From an uncultured Methanosarcinales archaeon (lineage in GTDB: Archaea; Nanobdellota; Nanobdellia; Woesearchaeales; ARS49), in contig CAZWVL010000002.1 in the NCBI GenBank assembly GCA_964637115.1, positions 1 to 64,000 of the forward strand: a DNA stretch of 64,000 nucleotides, read 5' to 3'. This document shows positions 22,130-35,325 of the stretch, piece by piece. Under the pieces are notes generated by a model. The model did not search any database. It had not been told where the DNA came from and was given only the letters and a program-made list of their open reading frames with translations. Position 1 is the stretch's first letter; every line of letters starts with the position of its first letter. Both the position numbers and the translations under genes were made by a program.

Positions 22130-25100
22130 CTACAACAATGCTTCAACACGAATCTTAAAGTGCAAAGTTTTATTGCCCAAGAGGTGCTTTGAAGGATCAG
22201 TGCCATAAGCTTCTTCAGGCGGAATAACAATGGTCTTCGTCTCGCCTTTCTTCATTCCCTGAATCCGCTTATCAAAACCAGGAATAACCTTGCCAGCACC
22301 AGAAACGAACGACAAAGGCTTCGCATTAAAATCCTCAAACTTTGAATCAGGAGTGACGTTCAACAATTTCCAGTTTTCTATGCTGCTGTCAAACACCTCA
22401 TTGTCATCAGTCCAGCCAATATAATGAACTGAAACCTTCGCTCCTGGCTCAACGCTGCTCTTCGGCTCAAGCTCTTTTGGAACATATGCTTCTGAACCTT
22501 CCCAATCAACCTTGTAAGCGTAAATATTGCCGCCAATCAACTGACGGTCTTCAGCAAATGGTTTGAAGTGCTTCAAGCCAAGACCTTTCATAAAGAACAT
22601 TCTAGTAAACATACTGTCAGCAAGCTCTGCATTCGCAGCAATCGCACTCACGCCACCTTCTGTTGGCCACATAACAACTATCAGTCCAGCGTTTCCATTC
22701 GGCACTTCCACAATTTGCTTTTCACCATTTGAATTGTAAATGATAACTTTGCCGGCACGAGCAACACCCTGCTGTATGCGTATTTCAGCATACTTGGTTG
22801 TCAAGTTAACAGCAATATTTCCGCCACAACGCGCAGTATCTCCGGAAACAGAACAAGAACTCGCATCTGATGCCAAATAACCAGGCCATGAACTAATCCA
22901 AGCATTAGCTGTATCTTCTGAAGTCAAAGCATTAGCTTCATTGTAAATGCGCTTCGCCTCTTCTTCAGTCCAATTAAAGCGCTTAACCATCTGCGGCACT
23001 GCCTCACTTTCATCCATCAACCGCCATTTCTGCCAGACCTCTGCTTTGTCAAACGTCCACATGCCAAAGTGCGCCCAGACACCAGCTTTTCCAATCATAT
23101 CAGCACTGGCAATAAAGAAATCTTCAGGAGGACTGCAATGCGTGTACTTCAAAATTTCTTCAGAAACACCGGCAGATTTTGCAGTCTGCGCAGCAGAATC
23201 CTTGTCCTGCATAATAATATCCTTAACTAATTTGATAGAGACAACAGGATCCTGAGTTGCATTCAATGCGAAATCATAGGCAGAATTTGCACCGCAATCA
23301 AGCATTCGCAAAATTCCAACTGCCTCTTTTTCATTATCAGTTTGCAGAGCGCGGCCAACCCAATGCGCCTGGGGCGAGTTTTGAATAGCGCCGTCAGAAG
23401 TTGTCGCGCGGTCAGCAATGTACTTGAAATGATGGCCAAAGTCCCACCACGAGTTGATAATAGCATTCGGCTGGCTGTTGTCCTTAATCTTTGTCAGCAC
23501 ACCCCACCACGCGTCATTAACAAGAGGGATATCATTAACAACACTGCCGTATGAATTTTGCACCATGTGAGCGCCTGAAACAGCAGGATTCACAATTATC
23601 ACTCCCATGACAACAATGACGACAATACTGGTGATAGTCTTGCCTAGATGCAGGCTTCTTTCGCCAAAAGCAGACAAGCGCTGCGCAAGCAAGCCGGCAG
23701 CAGCGCCAAAAGCAACTGCAAAAGCAGGGCCAAGAAGCAAAGTGAAACGTAAACCCTTCAAAGAAGCATAAATCGTGCCAATAAACCATAACGTCAACAA
23801 TGCAGTGTAAGTAACGTCAATTTTGCCGTGCTCATCGCGTTTTAGCAATAAAAGCAGGATGCCTAGCATGGCAATAACAAACATCAACGTACCGCCAATG
23901 GAGGCGATTACCTGGCTGAAGCTTGCCGGATTCAATTCCGCAACAGTTGTGTATACGTTAGGCCACAAGTTGGGCAAGGAGGCGGATTTGATTATGGTGA
24001 AGCTCAGCGCGCCCCTGAACGCACCTTCAATAAAACTAGTGAAACCAATCGTTAACGAACAAAACACAGCTGACGACGCAAAGAATGCCACACCAATCGT
24101 GATAAATTTCTTAATGCGCGAATGATGCCAGAGAGTGCCCTCCTTCAACTGCTGCAGATGTGTAAAGATTTCGAACACAACAGCAACCGCAAATGCGCCG
24201 AGAACAAAATCAAAAACATACCACCAGCCGCTCCACAAATTTGAAAATACTGCAAGCGTAAGACCAGTGAGCACACCAAACAATGCCTGCTTTTTCAACG
24301 ATGATGCGCTCAATGCGATAAATAACAAGTAAACAGCCAATGTTGGGAAAAATACGTTGTACGCATCTGTATCAAAGTGGCCCCAAGGAGTCCTGCCCAT
24401 CACTGCAGGCATAACAGCAAGCACAGTTACTGCAAAAAATCCACCAATATTGCCGGAAACTTTCTGTGCGATAAAGAAAACAAAAATTAAAGACAAAAAT
24501 ATGAACACAATCGGGAAATAATTGGAAGACTGCATCAAAGTAATACGGCTGTCAAATAATTTCATGATTTTAAACAGAACAACGGCCACATACGGATGCC
24601 AGTTCTTGTCGGCTGGCAAGCCCAATGGAGCCATCATATGATCATCCCATGGCTGGCCGTCCTTCAGTATATCATATGCGTGTCCTTTCTCAACAATATT
24701 ACGAGCATATCTCAAGTAGAAGTACGGGTCAATGTCAGGCATATAACCGAACTTTCTGCCGTCAGACTCATACTGATAATGATCTCTTATTTGATCTGCG
24801 AGCTTTTTTTCCTCCTGAGCCAGCTGATCCTTGTTTTCGTCCTTGATTTTCTTCATCACATCATTGACGACTTTCACCTTATTCGCATCAGGAAGATTTG
24901 GATACTGCTGATTTGCGATGACAGAGGCCTGCTGCCTCAGATAATTATCAACGCTTGATGCAGCAGCAGAATCAGCAATAGGCAGATCACTAGATTGCAT
25001 TCGAATCCATATTCCGCCCCACGGATAATTACCGCCCGGATTAGGAATAAATTGCAGGATGAGCACTAATAATAGTGTAAGCAATACGGCATGCTTCTTG

Positions 25101-25156
25101 GAGAATGAAATGATCTTCTGGACTTGGGAAGTTCCCCCGCTGCTTTGCTCTTCCAT
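22130..25156 (-). CDS. aglB: Oligosaccharyltransferase AglB/STT3 with a fused C-terminal FKBP-type PPIase domain
   Basis: DIDPYF, GHFDTD, TVAEL and SWWDFG STT3 motifs; last ~108 aa are FKBP-like (VSVHYIG..VFDSS..VIPGFDKRIQGMKKGE..IPPEEAYG); start set to ATG 25156. Confidence 0.9.
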   Translation of the reverse strand: MEEQSSGGTSQVQKIISFSKKHAVLLTLLLVLILQFIPNPGGNYPWGGIWIRMQSSDLPIADSAAASSVDNYLRQQASVIANQQYPNLPDANKVKVVNDVMKKIKDENKDQLAQEEKKLADQIRDHYQYESDGRKFGYMPDIDPYFYLRYARNIVEKGHAYDILKDGQPWDDHMMAPLGLPADKNWHPYVAVVLFKIMKLFDSRITLMQSSNYFPIVFIFLSLIFVFFIAQKVSGNIGGFFAVTVLAVMPAVMGRTPWGHFDTDAYNVFFPTLAVYLLFIALSASSLKKQALFGVLTGLTLAVFSNLWSGWWYVFDFVLGAFAVAVVFEIFTHLQQLKEGTLWHHSRIKKFITIGVAFFASSAVFCSLTIGFTSFIEGAFRGALSFTIIKSASLPNLWPNVYTTVAELNPASFSQVIASIGGTLMFVIAMLGILLLLLKRDEHGKIDVTYTALLTLWFIGTIYASLKGLRFTLLLGPAFAVAFGAAAGLLAQRLSAFGERSLHLGKTITSIVVIVVMGVIIVNPAVSGAHMVQNSYGSVVNDIPLVNDAWWGVLTKIKDNSQPNAIINSWWDFGHHFKYIADRATTSDGAIQNSPQAHWVGRALQTDNEKEAVGILRMLDCGANSAYDFALNATQDPVVSIKLVKDIIMQDKDSAAQTAKSAGVSEEILKYTHCSPPEDFFIASADMIGKAGVWAHFGMWTFDKAEVWQKWRLMDESEAVPQMVKRFNWTEEEAKRIYNEANALTSEDTANAWISSWPGYLASDASSCSVSGDTARCGGNIAVNLTTKYAEIRIQQGVARAGKVIIYNSNGEKQIVEVPNGNAGLIVVMWPTEGGVSAIAANAELADSMFTRMFFMKGLGLKHFKPFAEDRQLIGGNIYAYKVDWEGSEAYVPKELEPKSSVEPGAKVSVHYIGWTDDNEVFDSSIENWKLLNVTPDSKFEDFNAKPLSFVSGAGKVIPGFDKRIQGMKKGETKTIVIPPEEAYGTDPSKHLLGNKTLHFKIRVEALL

Positions 25157-25298
25157 GACGTGCAAAACCAGAGCACTGCTTAAAAAGTTTGTCATCACCA
25201 AATGTCGAACTAGTTGCCACTATAGAATAGCAACAGATAGAAAGTTTTAAATATCTCTTGCACTACGTCGATAATTAAGCTATATATAACGGGGGTTT

Positions 25299-26411
25299 AT
25301 GATGAGCATTTGGAAAAGTTTCAAGAATACAGTTCTCACAGGAGCATTACTTGCAGGTTCTCTATTTGCAACGCAAAAAGCATACTCACAAGACACTTAC
25401 AACGAGGACAACAAGCCGGCGAAAACAGAAAAAACCGCGCCAATACTCTCACTCACTGACGATAATATTGAAAGGAAAGTTGATGTTCTGCTTAGAGGCT
25501 CACTCCAGGCAAAAGCAGAAACAGATCCATTAGTTGACAGATTGTCAGCAAGCGCACAATTTGAATGGATGACAGGCAATCTTAGACCTTATCTTGGCAT
25601 CCAGGACGTCTTTGAAAAATGGGATAATATCGACGGAAGCAAGCTTGAAGTAAACTCTTTGCGCGAAATAGCAGCACTTGGCATATATTTGGAAAACACT
25701 CCGAAACAAGAAATATACCTGCGTGCTATTCTGGGAAACGAAAACAGCAAATTCAGCGACGCTATAAAAATGGATTCACAACGCTTGATTTATGGTGTAG
25801 AAGCAGGCCTTGCAAGCGTAGAAAAAGGATACAAACTACTCGCAAAATTCTACAAAGGAAACGGAAAGTTTGACGCAGAACTTGAAAGCGGCTTTGAAAT
25901 CGACGGAGATTTGGATACAACATATGCAGGTCTTGAAGGCAGATTTGCACTTAGTCGCGAGGGAAAAAGGCGCTCAGGAAGCTCAGAATTCGACAAACGC
26001 CAGGATGAAAGAGAAGCAAACTTCACACTTGACCTTCTTGCAGACGTGTACTGGAACAGAAACGAGTTTGTTGAACTTGAACAAGACGACACAATACAAT
26101 TCAAGCTTGGGCCATCATTCACGTGGAATTACCGCGATGAAAAAGGAAATGGCGGCATATGGAATTTGACAACATATGGTGTCTACAAGAATCTCGAAAC
26201 AGAAAGCGGAATTTCACTGAGACAAACACAGACAACAACTATGGGCGGTGGTGCTACATTTACCTATTCACCAACTCCACACTGGAGCTTATCCGTACTG
26301 CTTGGCGTCAACAAAAGCAAGCAAACAATCGACGATCCAGGTCAAAACTTTGACCGAACAGAAACAAGGAGCGGCGTTACTGCAGCCTTTATCATCAGAT
26401 ATGATTTTTAG
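25299..26411 (+). CDS. Secreted all-beta protein resembling an outer-membrane beta-barrel
   Basis: Sec-type signal peptide (AYS|Q), about 14-16 alternating-hydrophobicity strands and a C-terminal ...FIIRYDF beta-signal-like end. Confidence 0.6.
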   Translation: MMSIWKSFKNTVLTGALLAGSLFATQKAYSQDTYNEDNKPAKTEKTAPILSLTDDNIERKVDVLLRGSLQAKAETDPLVDRLSASAQFEWMTGNLRPYLGIQDVFEKWDNIDGSKLEVNSLREIAALGIYLENTPKQEIYLRAILGNENSKFSDAIKMDSQRLIYGVEAGLASVEKGYKLLAKFYKGNGKFDAELESGFEIDGDLDTTYAGLEGRFALSREGKRRSGSSEFDKRQDEREANFTLDLLADVYWNRNEFVELEQDDTIQFKLGPSFTWNYRDEKGNGGIWNLTTYGVYKNLETESGISLRQTQTTTMGGGATFTYSPTPHWSLSVLLGVNKSKQTIDDPGQNFDRTETRSGVTAAFIIRYDF

Positions 26412-26483: not shown

Positions 26484-27560
26484 ATGAAAGGAATATACGG
26501 AGCATTGCTCGCAGCAGGATTAAGCGTTTTCAACTACGGATGCGCAGTACAAAAGGATTCTAAATTAGAACAGAAAGCAGCTGTAGTCCAGAAAGCTGAA
26601 CAAGACTCATATTCTGCAAAAGGCAACCAAGAAAAAGTCGTATATCTCCGCGATCAGCTCAAAGCAGTCAAGAAAGACGGCGTTGTAAACCCTAATGAAA
26701 TTTCTACAATTGAAACAACTGTTGCACGTGCAGAACAAGTGAGCAAATCACTCAAAGGCGAAGATGCAATCAGCAAAGCAGTAAAAGCAGAAGCAGAATC
26801 AATTGCAAAAGACGGCAATCAGTATAAAACGGACCTTCTCAACAGCAAACAGCTTGAAGTATATGCAGTTGTTCTCTATCAGGAACAACCTGGCAATCCA
26901 GCATCAAGCGTTAAAGCAATGGGTGTTAATGAAAACGATCACATGAAGCTTGAAGGCATATGTGCAGAGCAATCAACAGTGCTTGGCTTCAGCGCAGAAA
27001 AGGCATTTGCAAAACGTTCAACCAAGGACAGCTGGGGATATTCAAGAGATACAAAGCTCGGCCTAAGTAAAGAGGATTATCTGCGTTTGTCAAAAGAAGA
27101 GATAAAAGCAATCGAAGCAAGACAACAGGATTTTCTTGGCAGTGTTACCTGGGTAGAAAATCCAGAAAAATTAGCACAATACTTCCCGGGAAAGAAATTA
27201 TCCTGCTCAGTGGATGCAGATACATTCAGCGAAAAGCGCTACAACGATGCTCTCGCAAAAGGCAAAATCCTTAGAGTCGGAGTTCAGTATGTACTGAGAA
27301 CTCTTGAGCCAACAAAGAAAGAAAAGAAAGACAAGAAAACAGAAGCTCCTAAAGTAGAAGCACCAAAAGCAGTAGAAGCGCCAAAAATAGACGACGCTGC
27401 TGCAAAAGCTGCTGCTGAAAAAGCAAAAGCAGACTCTGAAGCAAGAGCAGCTGCAGAAAGAAAAGCAGCAGAAGCAAGAGCAACTGCAGAAAAATCAGCT
27501 GCTGAGAAAGCCAAGAAAGTAAAAGACCTCGGCGACATCGACACATACGTTGAGAAGTAA
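26484..27560 (+). CDS. Lipoprotein with a TolA-like Ala/Lys/Glu-rich C-terminal helix
   Basis: Lipobox-like NYGC; three EAPK repeats then AAAKAAAEKAK...; G-rich SD; start set to ATG 26484. Confidence 0.7.
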   Translation: MKGIYGALLAAGLSVFNYGCAVQKDSKLEQKAAVVQKAEQDSYSAKGNQEKVVYLRDQLKAVKKDGVVNPNEISTIETTVARAEQVSKSLKGEDAISKAVKAEAESIAKDGNQYKTDLLNSKQLEVYAVVLYQEQPGNPASSVKAMGVNENDHMKLEGICAEQSTVLGFSAEKAFAKRSTKDSWGYSRDTKLGLSKEDYLRLSKEEIKAIEARQQDFLGSVTWVENPEKLAQYFPGKKLSCSVDADTFSEKRYNDALAKGKILRVGVQYVLRTLEPTKKEKKDKKTEAPKVEAPKAVEAPKIDDAAAKAAAEKAKADSEARAAAERKAAEARATAEKSAAEKAKKVKDLGDIDTYVEK

Positions 27561-27600: not shown

Positions 27601-28698
27601 ATGAAACCAACCAAAACACTACCATTCATTTCTATGCTTTTGATAGCAGCAATGATAACTGCACCATTCATCTTCGCATTCGAAGGCGGCTTTGACAGCA
27701 GCTTCTTCACAGGCGGTTCTTATGGCGGAACAGATTCGAGCGCGTTCTCAGGCGGCTCTTATGGAGGCCAAGATCCAAGTGCTTTCTCAGGCGGTTCATT
27801 CGGAGGAACTGACCCAAGCGCGTTCTCAGGCGGTTCTTATGGCGGAACTGATCCAAGTGCATTCTCGGGCGGTTTATATGGCGGAACTGATCCGAGTGCA
27901 TTTTCGGGCGGCTCAGAAACAGGAACTGGAAGCACATCAGGCAGCATAACAGGCGGAACAACTGGAGGCAGCTTTGACGGACCAGGCAGCATAGGATTCC
28001 CAGGCGGAGACCTGCCAGGCGGACCAGCACCAGGACCAGGACCAGGATTCCCATCAGAACACGACGCAGTATGGCAAGATTTGCCAGATAAAACAATCCT
28101 GCGCGGCAGTCCATCAGGCACGCTCATACAAGAAAACGTATTTGACAAGTGCACAGACCCAGACAGCGACACATTATTCTTTGAAATAACAAGCACATCA
28201 ACACATTATGAATTATTCTTCTTCGCAAACGACATCAGAATCTTTTTCCTTGATCCAGGTTTTGTAGGCAGTGAAACGGCTGTTGTAACCTGCAACGGAG
28301 TGCCGGAAAGCTTCTTACTGCACGTTGTTGAAAGAGGAGCATCAATACAAACACTGGAAGATGAAGATGACAGACTCAGTGTGCACATCGGCGCTATTAT
28401 AATACCAAACGCATACGATGCGCAAGCAGGAGATGTTGTTCCTGTCACAATCTCATTCAAAAACAATGGTGACGAGAAGCTCGAAAACCTGAAAGCAGCT
28501 GTCGCAATTCCAGACCTTGGTGTAAAAGCATCAGTAGGGCCAATGGAAGATCTGCCAGTAGGCAAGCGCGTCAGCAAGACTGTTTATATCGAACTTCCAG
28601 AAGATGCCAAAGAAGGCATGTACTATGCACGCATAACGATTGACAGCGGCTCATTACACCGCGTCAAGCACCGCGATGTTGAAGTCATCGTGCAATAA
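27601..28698 (+). CDS. Secreted protein: Gly/Ser/aromatic tandem repeats, cadherin-like module and CARDB-like Ig domain
   Basis: Signal peptide, about six 13-aa repeats, DPDSD motif and VPVTISFKNNGDEKLENL. Confidence 0.75.
   Translation: MKPTKTLPFISMLLIAAMITAPFIFAFEGGFDSSFFTGGSYGGTDSSAFSGGSYGGQDPSAFSGGSFGGTDPSAFSGGSYGGTDPSAFSGGLYGGTDPSAFSGGSETGTGSTSGSITGGTTGGSFDGPGSIGFPGGDLPGGPAPGPGPGFPSEHDAVWQDLPDKTILRGSPSGTLIQENVFDKCTDPDSDTLFFEITSTSTHYELFFFANDIRIFFLDPGFVGSETAVVTCNGVPESFLLHVVERGASIQTLEDEDDRLSVHIGAIIIPNAYDAQAGDVVPVTISFKNNGDEKLENLKAAVAIPDLGVKASVGPMEDLPVGKRVSKTVYIELPEDAKEGMYYARITIDSGSLHRVKHRDVEVIVQ
27694..27927 (+). repeat. In-frame 39-bp tandem repeat (about 6 copies) encoding DPSAFSGGSYGGT
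   Basis: Read directly from the DNA and the translation; synonymous differences between copies. Confidence 0.9.
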
Positions 28699-28768: not shown

Positions 28769-28869
28769 ATAGTATTTACTAGAAGGTAGTAACAGAGTAA
28801 AACTACTCCAGAATAGAAAAACTTTAATAGCAGGATACTGTCCTGCAAACATATGTGGGGGTCATCATA

Positions 28870-30093
28870 ATGAAGGCAATACAAGCAATCGTTGCATTGG
28901 CATTATTCTTAGCAGTTATCAGTTCAGCAATAGCATTACCAGTTGTTCTTGACGAAGTAGAAGTCGACGACACTATTCTTACAGAAAATGCAGTTAACAG
29001 ATTATCATTAGAACGCGGCGAAGAATACGAAGTCAGAGTAAGATTCACTCCAACATATGACATTGAAAACGCAGAAGTCAGAGTGTTCATTTCAGGATAC
29101 GAATTCAACGACGTTGACAACATCGAAGACAAAACACCAGTCTTTGATGCGGACGCAAACGTCACGTATGTCAAGAAGTTAAACATAGTAGTTCCGGATG
29201 AAGTTGATGAAGACGACTACAAGCTCAGAGTTGTAATCTCAGACAGATTTGGAGACGAAAGAGTTGCAAACTACAATTTGAAAATTGACGTTCCACGAAA
29301 TGCGATGAAAATTGAAGATGTTGTGTTCAGCCCAAGCAACGCAGTAAGAGCAGGCAGTGCATTATTGACAACCGTGCGCGTTGAAAACAAGGGCGAAAAA
29401 TCACAGGATGATGTCAAAGTCACAGTAAACATACCAGGCCTTGGCGTTTCAGGCACAGAATACATCGACGAAGTCGATGACGGCGACGAAGAAGAAGAAA
29501 CAGAAGAAATCTTCCTCAGAGTACCGAAGTGCGCAAAAGCAGGCCAGTACGACGTAACAGTCGATGTCGAGTTCTCACAGAGACACAGAAAAGTCAGCGA
29601 GAAACGCACAATCACTGTGCTCGAAGATGAGACTTGCAATGAAGACAACAAGCAGACATCAAGCATAACCCTAGGCAACCAGATGCAAAGCGTTGCAAAT
29701 GGACAAACAGCAATCTTCCCAATCACAGTAACGAATGCAGGCAAGACCAGCAAGACATTTGTGGTCACTGTGCCAAGTACAGACTGGGCAGCTGTAACAA
29801 TCACGCCAACCAGCATGCTCGTCGTACCAGCAGGCCAGACACAGACCATCTTTGTCAACGTACAAGTCAGCGAGGAAGCACCATCAGGAGCACACTCACT
29901 TGTCGCAACAATCGCATCAGGCGACAGCAGACAAGAACTCACGTTGACAGCCAATGTCGTATCACAGCAGTCAAAATCCAAGGGCGTGTTTGAGGTAATA
30001 CTCATCGTCCTCGTGGTCCTGCTCGTCATCCTTGGCATTATAATCGGCATCGGACACTTGCGCGGCAAGGAACAAGCCGAAACATACTACTAA
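28870..30093 (+). CDS. S-layer-like surface protein with tandem Ig/CARDB domains and a C-terminal TM anchor
   Basis: Signal peptide, very acidic beta-rich body (VRVENKG, ITVTNAG) and C-terminal TM helix; start set to ATG 28870. Confidence 0.75.
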   Translation: MKAIQAIVALALFLAVISSAIALPVVLDEVEVDDTILTENAVNRLSLERGEEYEVRVRFTPTYDIENAEVRVFISGYEFNDVDNIEDKTPVFDADANVTYVKKLNIVVPDEVDEDDYKLRVVISDRFGDERVANYNLKIDVPRNAMKIEDVVFSPSNAVRAGSALLTTVRVENKGEKSQDDVKVTVNIPGLGVSGTEYIDEVDDGDEEEETEEIFLRVPKCAKAGQYDVTVDVEFSQRHRKVSEKRTITVLEDETCNEDNKQTSSITLGNQMQSVANGQTAIFPITVTNAGKTSKTFVVTVPSTDWAAVTITPTSMLVVPAGQTQTIFVNVQVSEEAPSGAHSLVATIASGDSRQELTLTANVVSQQSKSKGVFEVILIVLVVLLVILGIIIGIGHLRGKEQAETYY

Positions 30094-30117: not shown

Positions 30118-32475
30118 ATGCAGCGCACAATCATTTTTTTGTTAATTGCTTCTTTATTTCTCGTGAGCGTCAGCGCCCAAGACTTTAATGCCTTTGGAGA
30201 TTTAACCGTTAATGCAGTCCCCTGCGGCAGCGCAGTAAGAAACGTAACAATACAGAACACAAAAGAAGTACAATCAACCTTCGGCTTAAGCGTAGAAGGG
30301 GATGCAAGCGACTATGTAACATTCTCGGCAATCAGCTTCACATTACAGCCACAACAAAGCATTGTAATAAACACCTTTTACAACATACCCTGCAACGTAA
30401 AACCAGGCATTTACTCAACTGACTTATTCTTCTCAGATGAAGAAGTAGAAAAGCAGCTCACACAAGAATTGATAATTGCAGTGCCAGACAATCTCAATTT
30501 AACTCTTTCACAAACAAGCGCAGTCATTGCACCATGCGAAACAGCAGGCTACACGCTTTCATTGCACAACCCTCTCAATTTCACCGAAATATACAACCTG
30601 CAAGCATCAGGACATCCAAACGTTCACGTGAGCGAGAAAACAGCTGTTTTACAAGGCGACGAGAGAAAAGACATAATCGTTTCCGTGACACCAGATGACT
30701 GCACGCAATCAGGAACTTTCCCATTAACAGTCTCAATTGATGCCGACAAATCAAGCCAGCACAAAGAAATCGCACTTGAGCTTATCATCAAAGCAACAGA
30801 CATTCCAGTTATTGCAGAAGGCATTACTAGAATAAGAACAGACTATGAAGATAGCACAACGGACATAAACATAGAAAACACGGGAGACAGAATAACACAA
30901 TACACAATGTCTGTGGAGGGCATCAGCTGGGCAGGAATTTCACCAAGCACAGTCTCATTAAATCCGGGCCAGACAAAAACATTAGCACTAAGGTTCCAGC
31001 CGACAAAAGAAATCAGCAAAGGAACTTACACGGCAACACTTGTTGCAACAGTAGAACAGACAGGAATCAGATACAGCAAGGACATAACGATTTCACTAAA
31101 ACCACAAACACTCTTTGAAAAAAATCCGGCACCAGTCATTGCGGCCATAATAATAGTCCTTGCAATCATCGCCGGAATATACTTCCTTGCCAGATATTTG
31201 CGAAGCCCTGCATTTAAAGAAAAAATGCGTCTCAGGAAAGAACAACGTGAAGCAAGACGCAAGGCACGCGAACAGAAACGAGCAGAAAAACTGAGACGAA
31301 AGCTCGAAATGCAGCACAAAGAAGTAGAGCGCAGACGCGTAGAAACGGAGCGCGTCAAAAAACAAATGCAGAGAAAGCTTGAGAAAGCATATAAGAGAGA
31401 ATATCACGTTGTAGCAAAAAAAGATCTCATAGTAGGAAAGAAAAAGACGCCGGCCGCAAAAATCCTTGCAGTCATACTCGGCATAATCATACTCATCCTG
31501 ATAGCAGCTTTCTGGGCGCTCATCGCACCAAACCTGGCTTATGTCCTTGTAGGCATCATAGTCCTTGCAATAATATATGCCGCAAAAAAACTCTCCAGAG
31601 CGCGCGTAATACGAGCAAACTGGAAAAATCTAGTGCAGCCGGTAAACATTACTGCTTGGAAGCGCGGATTATCATTACTAAGCATTACTCCAGAGAAAAC
31701 AATCAAAAACTTCAAACTGCTCGTCAGAAAAACACGAGCACGCGTTGCACCATCAGCAGCAGTATATCAAACAATACAGCTTAAGACAAACGTTTCAGAA
31801 GACGCAACTGCGATTAAAGCAACTTTCTCAATTTCAAAAAGATGGCTTGCAAGAAAACAAGCAAGCCTTGACGACGTAAGAATTGCGCGCTATTCAAACC
31901 AGGCCTGGAGCACGATATCCTTCAAGAAAACAGGAGAAGACAAGAACGTGATTTACATCACGGCAGACATCGACAAGCACGGAACTTACAGCTTGTACGC
32001 ACGCGTAACACAAAAAACAGTGCCGGGCAACAGAATCGTCTGGGGCTTTATCGGAGTAGCACTGCTCGTGTTAATCGCAGTTGCACTCACTCCATCAAGC
32101 GGCACTGTTGCACACGGCATACCGCCACAAGTCTGGCAGCAAGATTTAGTACACTCACTTGACTTAAGCAACTATTTCAAAGACCCTGACAGCGACAAGT
32201 TAACCTTCAGCGTCTCAAAAACAAACCGCATTGCTATTGACATCGTTGGCAGCACAGCCTTCATGACTCCAGATCCGGGCTGGACTGGAGAAGAAAGAGT
32301 CAAGTTCGGAGCCTCAGACAGCAAAGGAGGATTTATAGCAAGCAACACGGTTCCATTGCGCGTTCAAAGCCATCTAGTGCCACCACGCATACAACCGTAC
32401 ATTGCACTTCTTGTGGCAATCGTTGCATTAATTCTGATAGTGTGGTCAATCAGATCACAAAACAAGAAGAAATAA
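30118..32475 (+). CDS. Large multi-pass surface protein (Ig domains, basic coiled coil, PGF-pre-PGF-like domain, cadherin-like domain)
   Basis: Signal peptide, three Ig-like repeats, five TM segments and DLSNYFKDPDSD. Confidence 0.7.
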   Translation: MQRTIIFLLIASLFLVSVSAQDFNAFGDLTVNAVPCGSAVRNVTIQNTKEVQSTFGLSVEGDASDYVTFSAISFTLQPQQSIVINTFYNIPCNVKPGIYSTDLFFSDEEVEKQLTQELIIAVPDNLNLTLSQTSAVIAPCETAGYTLSLHNPLNFTEIYNLQASGHPNVHVSEKTAVLQGDERKDIIVSVTPDDCTQSGTFPLTVSIDADKSSQHKEIALELIIKATDIPVIAEGITRIRTDYEDSTTDINIENTGDRITQYTMSVEGISWAGISPSTVSLNPGQTKTLALRFQPTKEISKGTYTATLVATVEQTGIRYSKDITISLKPQTLFEKNPAPVIAAIIIVLAIIAGIYFLARYLRSPAFKEKMRLRKEQREARRKAREQKRAEKLRRKLEMQHKEVERRRVETERVKKQMQRKLEKAYKREYHVVAKKDLIVGKKKTPAAKILAVILGIIILILIAAFWALIAPNLAYVLVGIIVLAIIYAAKKLSRARVIRANWKNLVQPVNITAWKRGLSLLSITPEKTIKNFKLLVRKTRARVAPSAAVYQTIQLKTNVSEDATAIKATFSISKRWLARKQASLDDVRIARYSNQAWSTISFKKTGEDKNVIYITADIDKHGTYSLYARVTQKTVPGNRIVWGFIGVALLVLIAVALTPSSGTVAHGIPPQVWQQDLVHSLDLSNYFKDPDSDKLTFSVSKTNRIAIDIVGSTAFMTPDPGWTGEERVKFGASDSKGGFIASNTVPLRVQSHLVPPRIQPYIALLVAIVALILIVWSIRSQNKKK

Positions 32476-33591
32476 TTCGTACAGCATACCGATAGCGAAT
32501 AAAGCAATTAAAACTGTATAACCAAGCCAGTTTATTCTCAGACTAAATTCCGGCTTTCTCTCAGAACGCTTTCTTGCCTTTATATGCATCAAAACGACAG
32601 TAATGCCGGCAATACCTCCGGCAAAAGCACCTGCAACCTCCAAAGTCCTCACAAAAGACTGCACGCCGGCAAGAATCAAAGCCAAAGGAATGAGCAAAGT
32701 CAAAGACCACGCTTCCAAATGAGGCAGTTTGTAGTCAATCCAATACATTTCTTTCAATGCGTAGCCCAATGCTATAAATGATGTCGCCATGGCCAAAATA
32801 GCGAAAGCGTGCAATAGAATAAAGCCAATTCCACCAATCAATTGACCAACACCAATAGTAGCAACTTCAGTTGTTCCAATCCCAGTAACTCCAACAACAG
32901 CAGCAGCAAATAACAAATACACGACAATCGGAATAACAGAGCCGATAATGATTGCACGCTTTGTCAATAGCCTGCACGTCTTCATTTCTTCCCTTACTTC
33001 AGGAATGGCTGCAGTGCCGATGTATGCGAATAGCACGACGCCGAACGGCAGCAATAAAGCCTCCCACGAAAATCCGATAAAACGTTCAGCAAAGAAATGC
33101 GGCGAAGAAAACAAAATAACCAGAATAACGCCAAATATGATAAATTTCAATGCCTCCATAAACAATTCTGAGCGACCAAGAATACCGATGCCTCCAAATA
33201 TTATCCACGCCATTAACGCATAAAACAAAACAGCCCACAGCCAGAAAGAACCACCAAGCAAAGCCTGCACGCTCTGCCCGACACCAACAGTATACGCGAT
33301 TAATGCGCCATAAACACCGATAACCATTGAAGCTGTCATCAAATACTTGCCTTTCATGCCAAGATACTTTTCTGCATAGCCGGCCAACTGCATACACTTG
33401 TCAGAACGAAGAGTTACTTCGCCAATCAACAGATGCACGAACAAAGTTGCCAAACCAAGCCCGAGAATAACCAACATACCAGTCCAAAACCCGGCGTGTA
33501 CTACAACAAACGGAATGCCAAGAATACCGGCGCCAATAACGCAGCCGGTCAGAATAGCTATCGCCTGATAATACGCTAATGGACGTTTCAT
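32455..33591 (-). CDS. Amino acid permease (aromatic amino acid / Trp-Tyr permease-like)
   Basis: GCVIGAGILGIPF and LFAYIGTAAIPE; about 11 TM helices; start set to ATG 33591. Confidence 0.8.
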   Translation of the reverse strand: MKRPLAYYQAIAILTGCVIGAGILGIPFVVVHAGFWTGMLVILGLGLATLFVHLLIGEVTLRSDKCMQLAGYAEKYLGMKGKYLMTASMVIGVYGALIAYTVGVGQSVQALLGGSFWLWAVLFYALMAWIIFGGIGILGRSELFMEALKFIIFGVILVILFSSPHFFAERFIGFSWEALLLPFGVVLFAYIGTAAIPEVREEMKTCRLLTKRAIIIGSVIPIVVYLLFAAAVVGVTGIGTTEVATIGVGQLIGGIGFILLHAFAILAMATSFIALGYALKEMYWIDYKLPHLEAWSLTLLIPLALILAGVQSFVRTLEVAGAFAGGIAGITVVLMHIKARKRSERKPEFSLRINWLGYTVLIALFAIGMLYELFLLVL

Positions 33592-33685
33592 GCAACCTCT
33601 TTTTTTAGAAAACAAAGCTAATATCTGTTTTTAAATGTGATGTACAGAAACTTTTAAATACGCTCATAATCGACGATTGTTTCAA

Positions 33686-33769: not shown

Positions 33770-34915
33770 TCACTCAATCGCTTCAAATACCGGCTTGCCA
33801 TCAACAATGTGGACAATCGCAAGGCTGTAAACTGCATCGCCGTCCTCGCCAAATGAGAATGTTCCGACCGCTCCCGTGCGGTCTTTTGTGGCTATAATCT
33901 TCTCTCTGATGCAATCCTTATCATCTTCGCCGCACACTGTAACAACTTCTGCGAGCAGCTTAACTGCATCGTAATTCTCGGCGACAAGCGCAAAGTCAAT
34001 CGCAGGAAGGTCGCCATACTTCTGCTGGTATACCTCGGCGAAATGCTTGCTTATTTCATTTGTATCAGGATCAGCATGCGGCGTCACGGCCCACGCTGTA
34101 GCAGGCATTGCTCCTTCGGATTTGACCCAGGCACCCTTGCTGATAGTAACAGGGTCGCCCATGACTGGCAATGTTATACTGAGCTCTTTGAGTTGCTTGA
34201 AGAACAGTGAGGTGGAATCAGGACCCTGCGCACTGAACAGAACCACATCAGGGTTTGTTTCTTTGAGCTTAAGGAGGTCAGTCCTGAAATCTGTGGTGCC
34301 GGGCGCGAACGAGTTTGCAGAGACAATTTCACCGCCAAGCTCCTTGAAACGCTTGGTGAAAGCGTTCACCACACCTTGCGGGAAGTCCCGCTGCTCATTG
34401 TAGACCGCGACCTTCTTGATGCCTTTCTTAAACGCGACTTCTGCCTGTGCGCCAGCATAGTATGTCGCAGATGGCGTGATGCGGAGCGCGTACTTTCCCT
34501 TGCCTGTAAATGCAGGAGATGATGTGTCGCCAGCGAACTGGAAGACGCCCTTTGCCTGCGTGACCGGCAGAATAGCCATGCTTTCGGTGCTGCAATGGCC
34601 GCCAATGATAATCTTGACTTTGTCCACGTCGATAAGCTTTGTTGCAGCCGTTACTGCGGTAGCGCCATCGCACTTGCCGTCCTCGGCAACAAGTTCAAGT
34701 TTCTTTCCGTTAATGCCGCCTGCCGCGTTAATTTCTTCTGCAGCAATCTGCACCGAGTTCAGTGCGGGCTGGCCATAGAGCGTTGCCGTACCAGTTAACG
34801 GGCCGATGAAGCCCCATTTCGTGATCTGTGCTGTTTTTTCCGCTGGTTGTCCCTGCGGTGCACAAGCTGCGAGCAGTATAAACATACTTATTGCGAGAAT
34901 AGCGGTCATTTTCAT
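33770..34915 (-). CDS. Second LivJ-like ABC substrate-binding lipoprotein
   Basis: Lipobox LAAC, GFIGPLTG, AEDGKCD and IIGGHCS; GGAGGG SD before ATG 34915. Confidence 0.85.
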   Translation of the reverse strand: MKMTAILAISMFILLAACAPQGQPAEKTAQITKWGFIGPLTGTATLYGQPALNSVQIAAEEINAAGGINGKKLELVAEDGKCDGATAVTAATKLIDVDKVKIIIGGHCSTESMAILPVTQAKGVFQFAGDTSSPAFTGKGKYALRITPSATYYAGAQAEVAFKKGIKKVAVYNEQRDFPQGVVNAFTKRFKELGGEIVSANSFAPGTTDFRTDLLKLKETNPDVVLFSAQGPDSTSLFFKQLKELSITLPVMGDPVTISKGAWVKSEGAMPATAWAVTPHADPDTNEISKHFAEVYQQKYGDLPAIDFALVAENYDAVKLLAEVVTVCGEDDKDCIREKIIATKDRTGAVGTFSFGEDGDAVYSLAIVHIVDGKPVFEAIE

Positions 34916-34977
34916 ATGTATCCCTCCAATATAGTGCACGTATTTTTCTAACATTTTAAAACTTGTGCTCGATACAG

Positions 34978-35325
34978 CTACTTCAGAATATGCACGACGT
35001 CTCCTACCTGTGTGCCAGACTTGAAAATCGTGCCGCGCGGAAGCTCCAAAAGAAACATAAATGGCTTGGAAGGATTGTAGCTGCTGTAAGTATCCCATTC
35101 AGATTGTAGTTCAACAACCTCCCAGCTCTCGTCGAGAAACACCAAGTCCATGTTGTCAGGACAGAACCAAGAATGCAGTTTCACAATCTTCTCCTTTGGA
35201 AATGTGAAAACCAATGGAACAACCTCTTTTCTGAACATCATCCCTTTTGTCTGCTGCCAGAAAGACCTGCATTCTTCAAAAGAATCAGCCAGTACACTGT
35301 CCTTAGTTCTGTTAATAATCGGCAT
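34978..35325 (-). CDS. DUF192-family protein
   Basis: KGMMFR, LHSWF..MDLVFLD and LELPRG. Confidence 0.75.
   Translation of the reverse strand: MPIINRTKDSVLADSFEECRSFWQQTKGMMFRKEVVPLVFTFPKEKIVKLHSWFCPDNMDLVFLDESWEVVELQSEWDTYSSYNPSKPFMFLLELPRGTIFKSGTQVGDVVHILK

Follow-up and report, generated by a model that had tools for sequence, protein, structure and literature searches.

The window analysed here is the whole 64,000-nucleotide stretch, which is the start of a 160-kb contig of even GC content from an uncultured archaeon of the Woesearchaeales. It contains a gene at 25299-26411 (+) that we predict to encode a 14-stranded transmembrane beta-barrel of the outer-membrane type. The gene is archaeal, not part of a chimera, and it is the first of a conserved five-gene surface operon beside aglB-FKBP, the gene for an oligosaccharyltransferase fused to a prolyl isomerase. 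In the explanation we favour, to which we give a probability of about 40%, the protein is exported by Sec, processed by signal peptidase and folded as a monomeric barrel of the OmpG/CymA type. It would be a core part of the envelope and act as a passive channel set in lipid in the outer envelope of the archaeon itself, and its insertion would not depend on the beta-barrel assembly machinery (BAM). The whole analysis is computational.

Beta-barrels that span a membrane and carry a terminal aromatic signal are the textbook sign of a bacterial outer membrane or of an organelle derived from one, and their insertion is thought to require machines of the Omp85 family. A conserved, vertically inherited archaeal barrel, in a genome that shows none of the searched insertion-machinery families, would mean that some DPANN archaea may be diderm, or that they may export pores into the membrane of another cell, or that such barrels may be assembled independently of BAM. 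Any of these outcomes would matter for the evolution of envelopes, for the feeding of ultra-small symbionts and for what barrel biogenesis minimally requires. The barrel gene is short, present as a single copy in its genome and easy to express, so the membrane question is directly testable. An earlier sequence-only reading of this DNA had put the gene forward as a candidate new system, which goes further than these predictions carry.

Predicted fold and surface of the protein

The open reading frame (ORF) has 370 codons. An identical protein in public databases has 369 amino acids (aa) and is found on five contigs (the longest is 160,113 bp), consistent with gene callers starting at the second ATG, at 25302. 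The gene has three parts (a slash marks the cleavage site):

25299..25388 (+): signal peptide, aa 1-30, with predicted cleavage after A-Y-S; family consensus A-x-A/Q-D
25389..25490 (+): charged disordered N-terminal extension, aa 31-64; predicted local distance difference test (pLDDT) below 50 to residue 56, helix at 57-64
25491..26411 (+): 14-stranded beta-barrel, aa 65-370, plus stop codon; belt at the termini end, acidic crown opposite, ends Y-D-F

The leader includes a Lys-containing n-region, the hydrophobic core VLTGALLAGSLFA and the cleavage site A-Y-S/Q-D, and was judged by eye from the sequence. It has the form of a Sec signal peptide with a signal peptidase I site, and the A-x-A/Q site is kept across the family. 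No 19-residue window of the protein reaches the hydrophobicity of a transmembrane (TM) helix. The cleavable signal peptide and the lack of a TM helix described in the sequence-only reading are thus both upheld. The N-terminal extension shows moderate conservation among close orthologs and, from the model, might be a plug or a tether.

The AlphaFold2 model was built from an alignment of 14 orthologs and has a mean pLDDT of 73.8 and a predicted template modelling score (pTM) of 0.73, with the strand blocks mostly at pLDDT of about 75-90. It contains exactly 14 long strands within residues 65-369, preceded by a disordered segment (residues 1-56) and a short helix (residues 57-64). An even number of antiparallel strands in a closed barrel is the arrangement of the OMP/MBB superfamily. 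The 14-16 amphipathic strands proposed earlier agree with this count, and the segments quoted as examples lie inside the modelled strands. The matches listed by a Foldseek search of the PDB are all integral outer-membrane barrels, with CymA at the top (E 1e-9), followed by autotransporter barrels, FadL and OmpG. The nearest cluster in the ESM Atlas is a CymA-family porin (TM-scores of 0.68 and 0.75), and a language-model feature search, which uses no structure, gave OmpG and CymA porins as neighbours with a score of 0.97.

We looked for a lipid-facing belt by a sequence-based test on a 30-member family alignment that extends down to 21% identity, in which the amphipathic pattern of the strands exceeds chance. 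All 14 strands have their most hydrophobic alternating face in the half adjoining the termini-side turns. Family-wide, this face has a hydrophobic fraction of 0.63-0.91 and a charged fraction of at most 0.08, and the opposite face is polar. Five to six consecutive outward positions are hydrophobic (about 0.8-1.0), after which the value falls abruptly to less than 0.1, and aromatic-rich positions tend toward both edges of the hydrophobic band. The belt would be about 10-12 residues wide, which we take as about the thickness of a bilayer core. The hydrophobic face should point outward, because a 14-stranded barrel has a water-filled lumen, and with this orientation the protein has the lipid-facing belt and aromatic girdles of the OMP/MBB superfamily. 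An outer-membrane-type barrel with a hydrophobic belt and aromatic edges, as first proposed from the DNA, is therefore what the AlphaFold2 model, the Foldseek and feature matches and the alignment all point to, given that outward face.

The last strand reads V-x-A-x-F-x-I-x-Y-x-F (residues 360-370), and the protein ends in AAFIIRYDF, with the Tyr at -3 and the terminal Phe that had been noticed before. A terminal F or W is found in 25 of the 30 family members, and two more have a penultimate F. This is a C-terminal beta-signal in which the Gly of the canonical G-x-x-hydrophobic-x-hydrophobic core is off its usual place. The family alignment also contains invariant Gly and Pro residues. N-glycosylation sequons in the barrel are few and are not conserved.

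At the barrel end opposite the termini is a polar, acidic crown (D+E 23%), which holds the strongest motifs of the family: DNIDGS, EIDGD, TESGISLR and IDDPGQ. Among close orthologs, the share of columns with at least 90% conservation is 49% in the crown, 28% in the belt and 23% in the turns near the termini. Bacterial porins show the opposite pattern, in that their external loops usually vary most, and the crown may accordingly serve for docking or gating. It is a speculation that the D-x-D-G-like motifs of the crown bind calcium.

Sequence models do not clearly place the protein in a known barrel family. Ten of the 30 family members match the Pfam model OMP_b-brl (PF13505), one of them above the cut-off (E 6e-8, 33.5 vs 28.7 bits), whereas the window protein and most of its relatives score nothing or below cut-off. 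The matches land on differing parts of the proteins, which indicates a generic hairpin character like that of outer-membrane proteins, not clean family homology. A sequence search of the PDB with the family profile gave no match. CymA, a cyclodextrin channel of Klebsiella oxytoca (PDB 4d51, PF16941), shares 9-11% identity with the window barrel in the structural alignment, and the window barrel has no Pfam match to it. CymA belongs to a diderm bacterium that contains BAM, whereas the window barrel belongs to an archaeon; its N-terminal segment plugs the pore, whereas the N-terminus of the window barrel is disordered in the model; and its loop region is variable, unlike the conserved, acidic crown. 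We do not assign the protein to the CymA family, as it has no PF16941 sequence match and its N-terminus, a possible plug, is modelled as disordered. It also lacks sequence membership in the family of OmpG, a monomeric porin of E. coli (PDB 2iwv and 2f1c, PF09381), and its host is archaeal; the OmpG gene is in a sugar-uptake operon, whereas the window gene is in an S-layer/AglB operon. FadL and TodX (PDB 1t16 and 3brz) have a folded N-terminal hatch, the mark of the FadL family (PF03349), whereas the window barrel has only about 35 disordered residues and a short helix before strand 1, and no Pfam match.

Our literature search found no paper on bacterial-type barrels in Woesearchaeota. The nearest is a hint of PopA in a DPANN archaeon: a possible relative of the PopA superfamily in Altiarchaeales is given one sentence, with no further analysis there (PMC12228718). 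PopA is of a different barrel superfamily and is a small lipid-trapping oligomer, and Altiarchaeales are a different lineage from Woesearchaeota. What this locus adds is deep synteny with aglB, a co-evolving lipoprotein, a conserved promoter with a palindrome, and a conserved crown.

Archaeal setting and distribution of the gene

The genome is 1.27 Mb in 27 contigs and is 98% complete. It encodes TFB, found with a model that scores only in archaeal control genomes, and the same contig carries a gene for CDP-archaeol synthase (CarS) beyond the window (C2:94684-95178, -). The barrel gene and the divergent aglB (STT3) gene have a 97-bp intergenic region in common, which contains the following:

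25213..25234 (no strand): palindrome GTTGCCA-N8-TAGCAAC, just upstream of the promoter
25239..25253 (+): archaeal box AGAAAGTTTTAAATA, resembling a B recognition element and TATA box (BRE/TATA), about 50 nt before the ATG and nearly invariant in six aligned loci
25291..25296 (+): Shine-Dalgarno-like GGGGGT; the G run is conserved 3-8 nt before the start

The archaeal TATA promoter that the sequence-only reading placed in front of the gene is confirmed by the near invariance of this box, and the archaeal genomic setting that it described is borne out by TFB, CarS and the neighbouring aglB. A scan for bacterial sigma-70 promoters and terminators gave results no better than shuffles. In the compared loci the palindrome has the form GTTGC(C/T)A-N7/8-TAGCAAC, and its arms, GTTGC...GCAAC, do not vary among six loci with barrels only 27-61% identical. 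It is a probable regulator site for the divergent aglB and barrel promoters. One other near-identical site in the genome (C6:46331) is inside the coding region of a membrane protein and is probably due to chance, so we do not propose a regulon.

The gene order around the barrel is glycosyltransferases and aglB-FKBP (-), then on the (+) strand the barrel, a lipoprotein, a Gly-rich protein with an immunoglobulin-like (Ig) domain, an S-layer-like protein and a 785-aa Ig/TM protein, and then an amino-acid permease (-). The partners are:

22130..25201 (-): AglB/STT3 oligosaccharyltransferase with a C-terminal FKBP prolyl isomerase; Pfam STT3, STT3-PglB_core and FKBP_C
26484..27560 (+): lipoprotein-like partner P0002, the next gene after the barrel
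27601..28698 (+): surface protein anchored in the membrane, with Gly/Ser-rich repeats and, at its C-terminus, an Ig domain of NEW3/CARDB-like type
28855..30093 (+): S-layer-like protein with a below-cut-off match to a PACE-CTERM putative S-layer model, NEW3/CARDB domains and a C-terminal TM anchor
30118..32475 (+): Ig-domain protein of 785 aa that has several TM helices and a PGF-pre-PGF domain

Seven compared loci (L001-L004 and L006-L008), from independent NCBI and Logan assemblies, share this order and extend down to 27% barrel identity. An eighth (L005, from JGI) is a 3.4-kb contig with the barrel and two downstream genes only. The aglB gene adjoins the barrel gene in every syntenic locus with a readable upstream side. 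Synteny with aglB in independent assemblies excludes the earlier worry that the segment is a chimeric piece of a bacterial contig. The percent identities to the window proteins are, for L001, L002, L003, L004 and L006 in that order:

Barrel: 61, 61, 55, 32, 27
Adjacent lipoprotein: 55, 53, 57, 28, undetectable
S-layer-like gene: 84, 81, -, 75, 70
AglB: 77, 78, 79, 62, 57

These values make the barrel and the lipoprotein the two fastest-evolving members of the cluster, changing in step, and the S-layer-like gene is the best conserved.

The family profile matches 13 of the 14 other species of the GTDB genus, 27 of the 77 genomes of the GTDB family (9 of 29 genera, mostly with weak matches outside the genus) and 2 of 301 sampled genomes of the order. 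These tallies include unpublished genomes (G302 in the genus, and G364, G365 and G371 with weak matches), and the conclusions are independent of them. When 1.8 billion representative proteins were searched exhaustively with HMMER, just 21 relatives came up, each 330-425 aa long, and a second, word-indexed profile search added none. The neighbourhoods of 3 of the 21 were read and all have the same gene order; the two longer loci also include aglB. No bacterial relative of the barrel was found by sequence. The restricted set of relatives and the synteny point to an old, lineage-restricted and vertically inherited gene with no sign of recent transfer from bacteria. The suggestion that a bacterial gene had been acquired is not supported as a recent event, given the 21 relatives among 1.8 billion representatives and the order of the three loci.

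The relatives in species-representative genomes are titled Woesearchaeota archaeon, Nanoarchaeia archaeon and, in one case, Methanosarcinales, the last probably a mislabelled bin. The locus L002 (CAZNFZ010000073.1, "uncultured Methanosarcinales archaeon") contains the same Woesearchaeota-type cluster with 61-81% protein identity, and its bin label is probably wrong.

Location of the barrel

In the favoured explanation, the barrel would sit in a lipid layer outside the cytoplasmic membrane, within the archaeon's own envelope, as a passive and possibly gated diffusion channel. Its cell-facing side would be the one with the termini and the belt, and the conserved acidic crown may dock onto other envelope proteins or be gated by them. 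We place the barrel in the cell's own envelope because the gene looks like a housekeeping gene, has its promoter region in common with aglB and heads the S-layer operon, and because the barrel has resident outer-membrane protein topology. Also in favour of the explanation are the sharply bounded hydrophobic belt, the OMP_b-brl matches within the family, the archaeal and single-copy core character of the gene, its envelope neighbours (a lipoprotein, an S-layer-like protein and AglB) and two further barrel-like exported ORFs that a crude screen found in the genome. Insertion would be independent of BAM, either spontaneous or by lineage-specific factors, and candidate helpers are the co-evolving neighbour lipoprotein and the extracytoplasmic FKBP domain of AglB.

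Several observations weigh against this explanation. Pfam and NCBIfam models gave zero matches for the window barrel protein. A search of the genome for Omp85 had been proposed by the sequence-only reading; run with models for Omp85, POTRA, TamB and Skp/OmpH, it gave no match in the 98%-complete genome, and control diderm genomes score with these models. By the models searched, the genome thus shows no Omp85/BamA insertion machinery. A crude screen found only three barrel-like proteins in the genome, far fewer than diderm bacteria have. No geranylgeranylglyceryl phosphate (GGGP) synthase, PcrB, was detected in the genome, and with CarS present but this enzyme undetected, an incomplete archaeal lipid pathway is suggested. 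The outward direction of the hydrophobic face would follow from barrel geometry, which is a weak point. Cryo-electron tomography (cryo-ET) of a cultivated DPANN archaeon from a different lineage, Micrarchaeota, shows an S-layer over the cytoplasmic membrane (PMC11329633).

The same barrel may be a pore that is exported into the membrane of a host at a contact site to draw metabolites, with its crown docked to a symbiont surface apparatus encoded downstream and the archaeon presumed to be an episymbiont like cultivated DPANN. We regard this as possible, if on the doubtful side. It would suit the small genome with its undetected GGGP synthase, the few barrels and the searched insertion-machinery families that were unfound, and the rapid evolution of the barrel and lipoprotein (27-61% identity for the barrel against 70-84% for the S-layer-like protein) fits proteins at a host interface. 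The crown, best conserved among close orthologs, suggests a docking surface. Against it, both termini and the short turns lie at the end with the belt, as in a resident outer-membrane protein, and for insertion from outside either the large, polar crown or the termini would have to pass through the bilayer of the target. The gene is also a single-copy core gene that has its promoter and palindrome region in common with aglB and S-layer-like genes downstream, which gives it a housekeeping look, and no host organism is known for this archaeon. Doubtful too is a bolder form of the favoured explanation, a true second lipid membrane in this genus of Woesearchaeota, which would be a diderm archaeon with porins, having few bacterial-type barrels and an assembly system unrelated to BamA; the operon and the AglB FKBP domain would then be part of the envelope and its biogenesis.

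A barrel with no lipid embedding is unlikely. It could be secreted or integrated into the S-layer, with its belt covered by partner proteins or lipid anchors, or it could be a ligand-binding barrel under the S-layer. The DPANN envelope seen by cryo-ET has no second bilayer (PMC11329633), the gene is in one operon with S-layer-like and lipid-anchored proteins, no searched insertion-machinery family was found and the crown is highly conserved, all of which would agree with such a barrel. The continuous, nearly uncharged band of about 10-12 residues on one face, with aromatic-rich edges, present in all 14 strands and conserved in the family, is however a signature of lipid exposure, and the top structural and feature matches are all integral outer-membrane barrels, with no soluble 14-stranded barrel among the matches listed. 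Very unlikely is a gated or plugged pore that spans the cytoplasmic membrane of the archaeon itself, for instance within a cytoplasmic bridge linking it to a partner. The cytoplasmic membrane is the only one certain to exist, and the 35-residue N-terminal extension could plug the barrel as happens in CymA, but the plug is not confidently modelled and an open channel of the size of OmpG in an energised membrane would collapse ion gradients. We are aware of no precedent. It is hardly credible that the gene is an artefact, be it contamination from a bacterium, a chimera in the contig or an ORF that is not coding: the bin has a contamination estimate of 4.25%, but the 160-kb contig has uniform GC content and CarS aboard, the conserved archaeal promoter region is common to aglB, the gene order recurs in at least six independent assemblies, and the family alignment has its invariant Gly and Pro residues and a conserved belt.

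Partner proteins and other barrel-like genes

The lipoprotein-like P0002 has a signal peptide ending in G-C, a globular middle, a helical tail of about 45 residues rich in Ala, Lys and Glu, and a conserved end, KDLxDIDTFVE. The tail appears TolA-like in composition only. The P0002 profile matches 13 other genomes (including the unpublished G302), each time immediately downstream of the barrel match. One of five fold models reaches a pLDDT of 67; with this fold, Foldseek against the PDB returned nothing at E of 0.001 or below, and a feature search of the ESM Atlas gave no usable match. A complex prediction with P0002 and aa 29-370 of the barrel scored 0.01, which speaks neither for nor against binding.

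In AglB, the last TM helix is at aa 523-541 and the FKBP domain at aa 916-1019. The topology of AglB/PglB is established, and the FKBP domain, which comes after the last TM helix and the external domain, should face outside. Periplasmic FKBP chaperones such as FkpA assist the folding of outer-membrane proteins in bacteria. We considered the domain as a factor specific for the barrel and rejected this, as three genera without this barrel family have the same fusion, with other neighbours of aglB. The fusion is found across the GTDB family, and its presence in genera lacking the barrel makes the domain at most a general extracytoplasmic foldase. The AglB-FKBP protein also has a weak, below-cut-off match to the NCBIfam model "BamJ", by way of the FKBP domain alone.

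The screen for barrels selected exported proteins with a leader, no TM helix, a terminal aromatic residue and dyad-repeat hydrophobicity. Besides the window gene, it found two more barrel-like exported ORFs:

C4:18658-19698 (-): L015, 346 aa, ends EWKKEF, no Pfam match
C6:79571-80302 (-): L016, 243 aa, lipobox LSGC, ends QIGVKF, no Pfam match

A fourth candidate, on contig C27, is a truncated transglutaminase-like ORF and a false positive.

The surface protein encoded at 27601-28698 has about six tandem repeats of F-S-G-G-S-Y-G-G-T-D-P-S-A ahead of its NEW3 domain. Directly after the surface operon, the genome encodes a Trp/Tyr-type amino-acid permease (32455-33615, -) and a Leu/Ile/Val-type solute-binding protein (33770-35098, -), and the position of the permease is kept in the syntenic loci.
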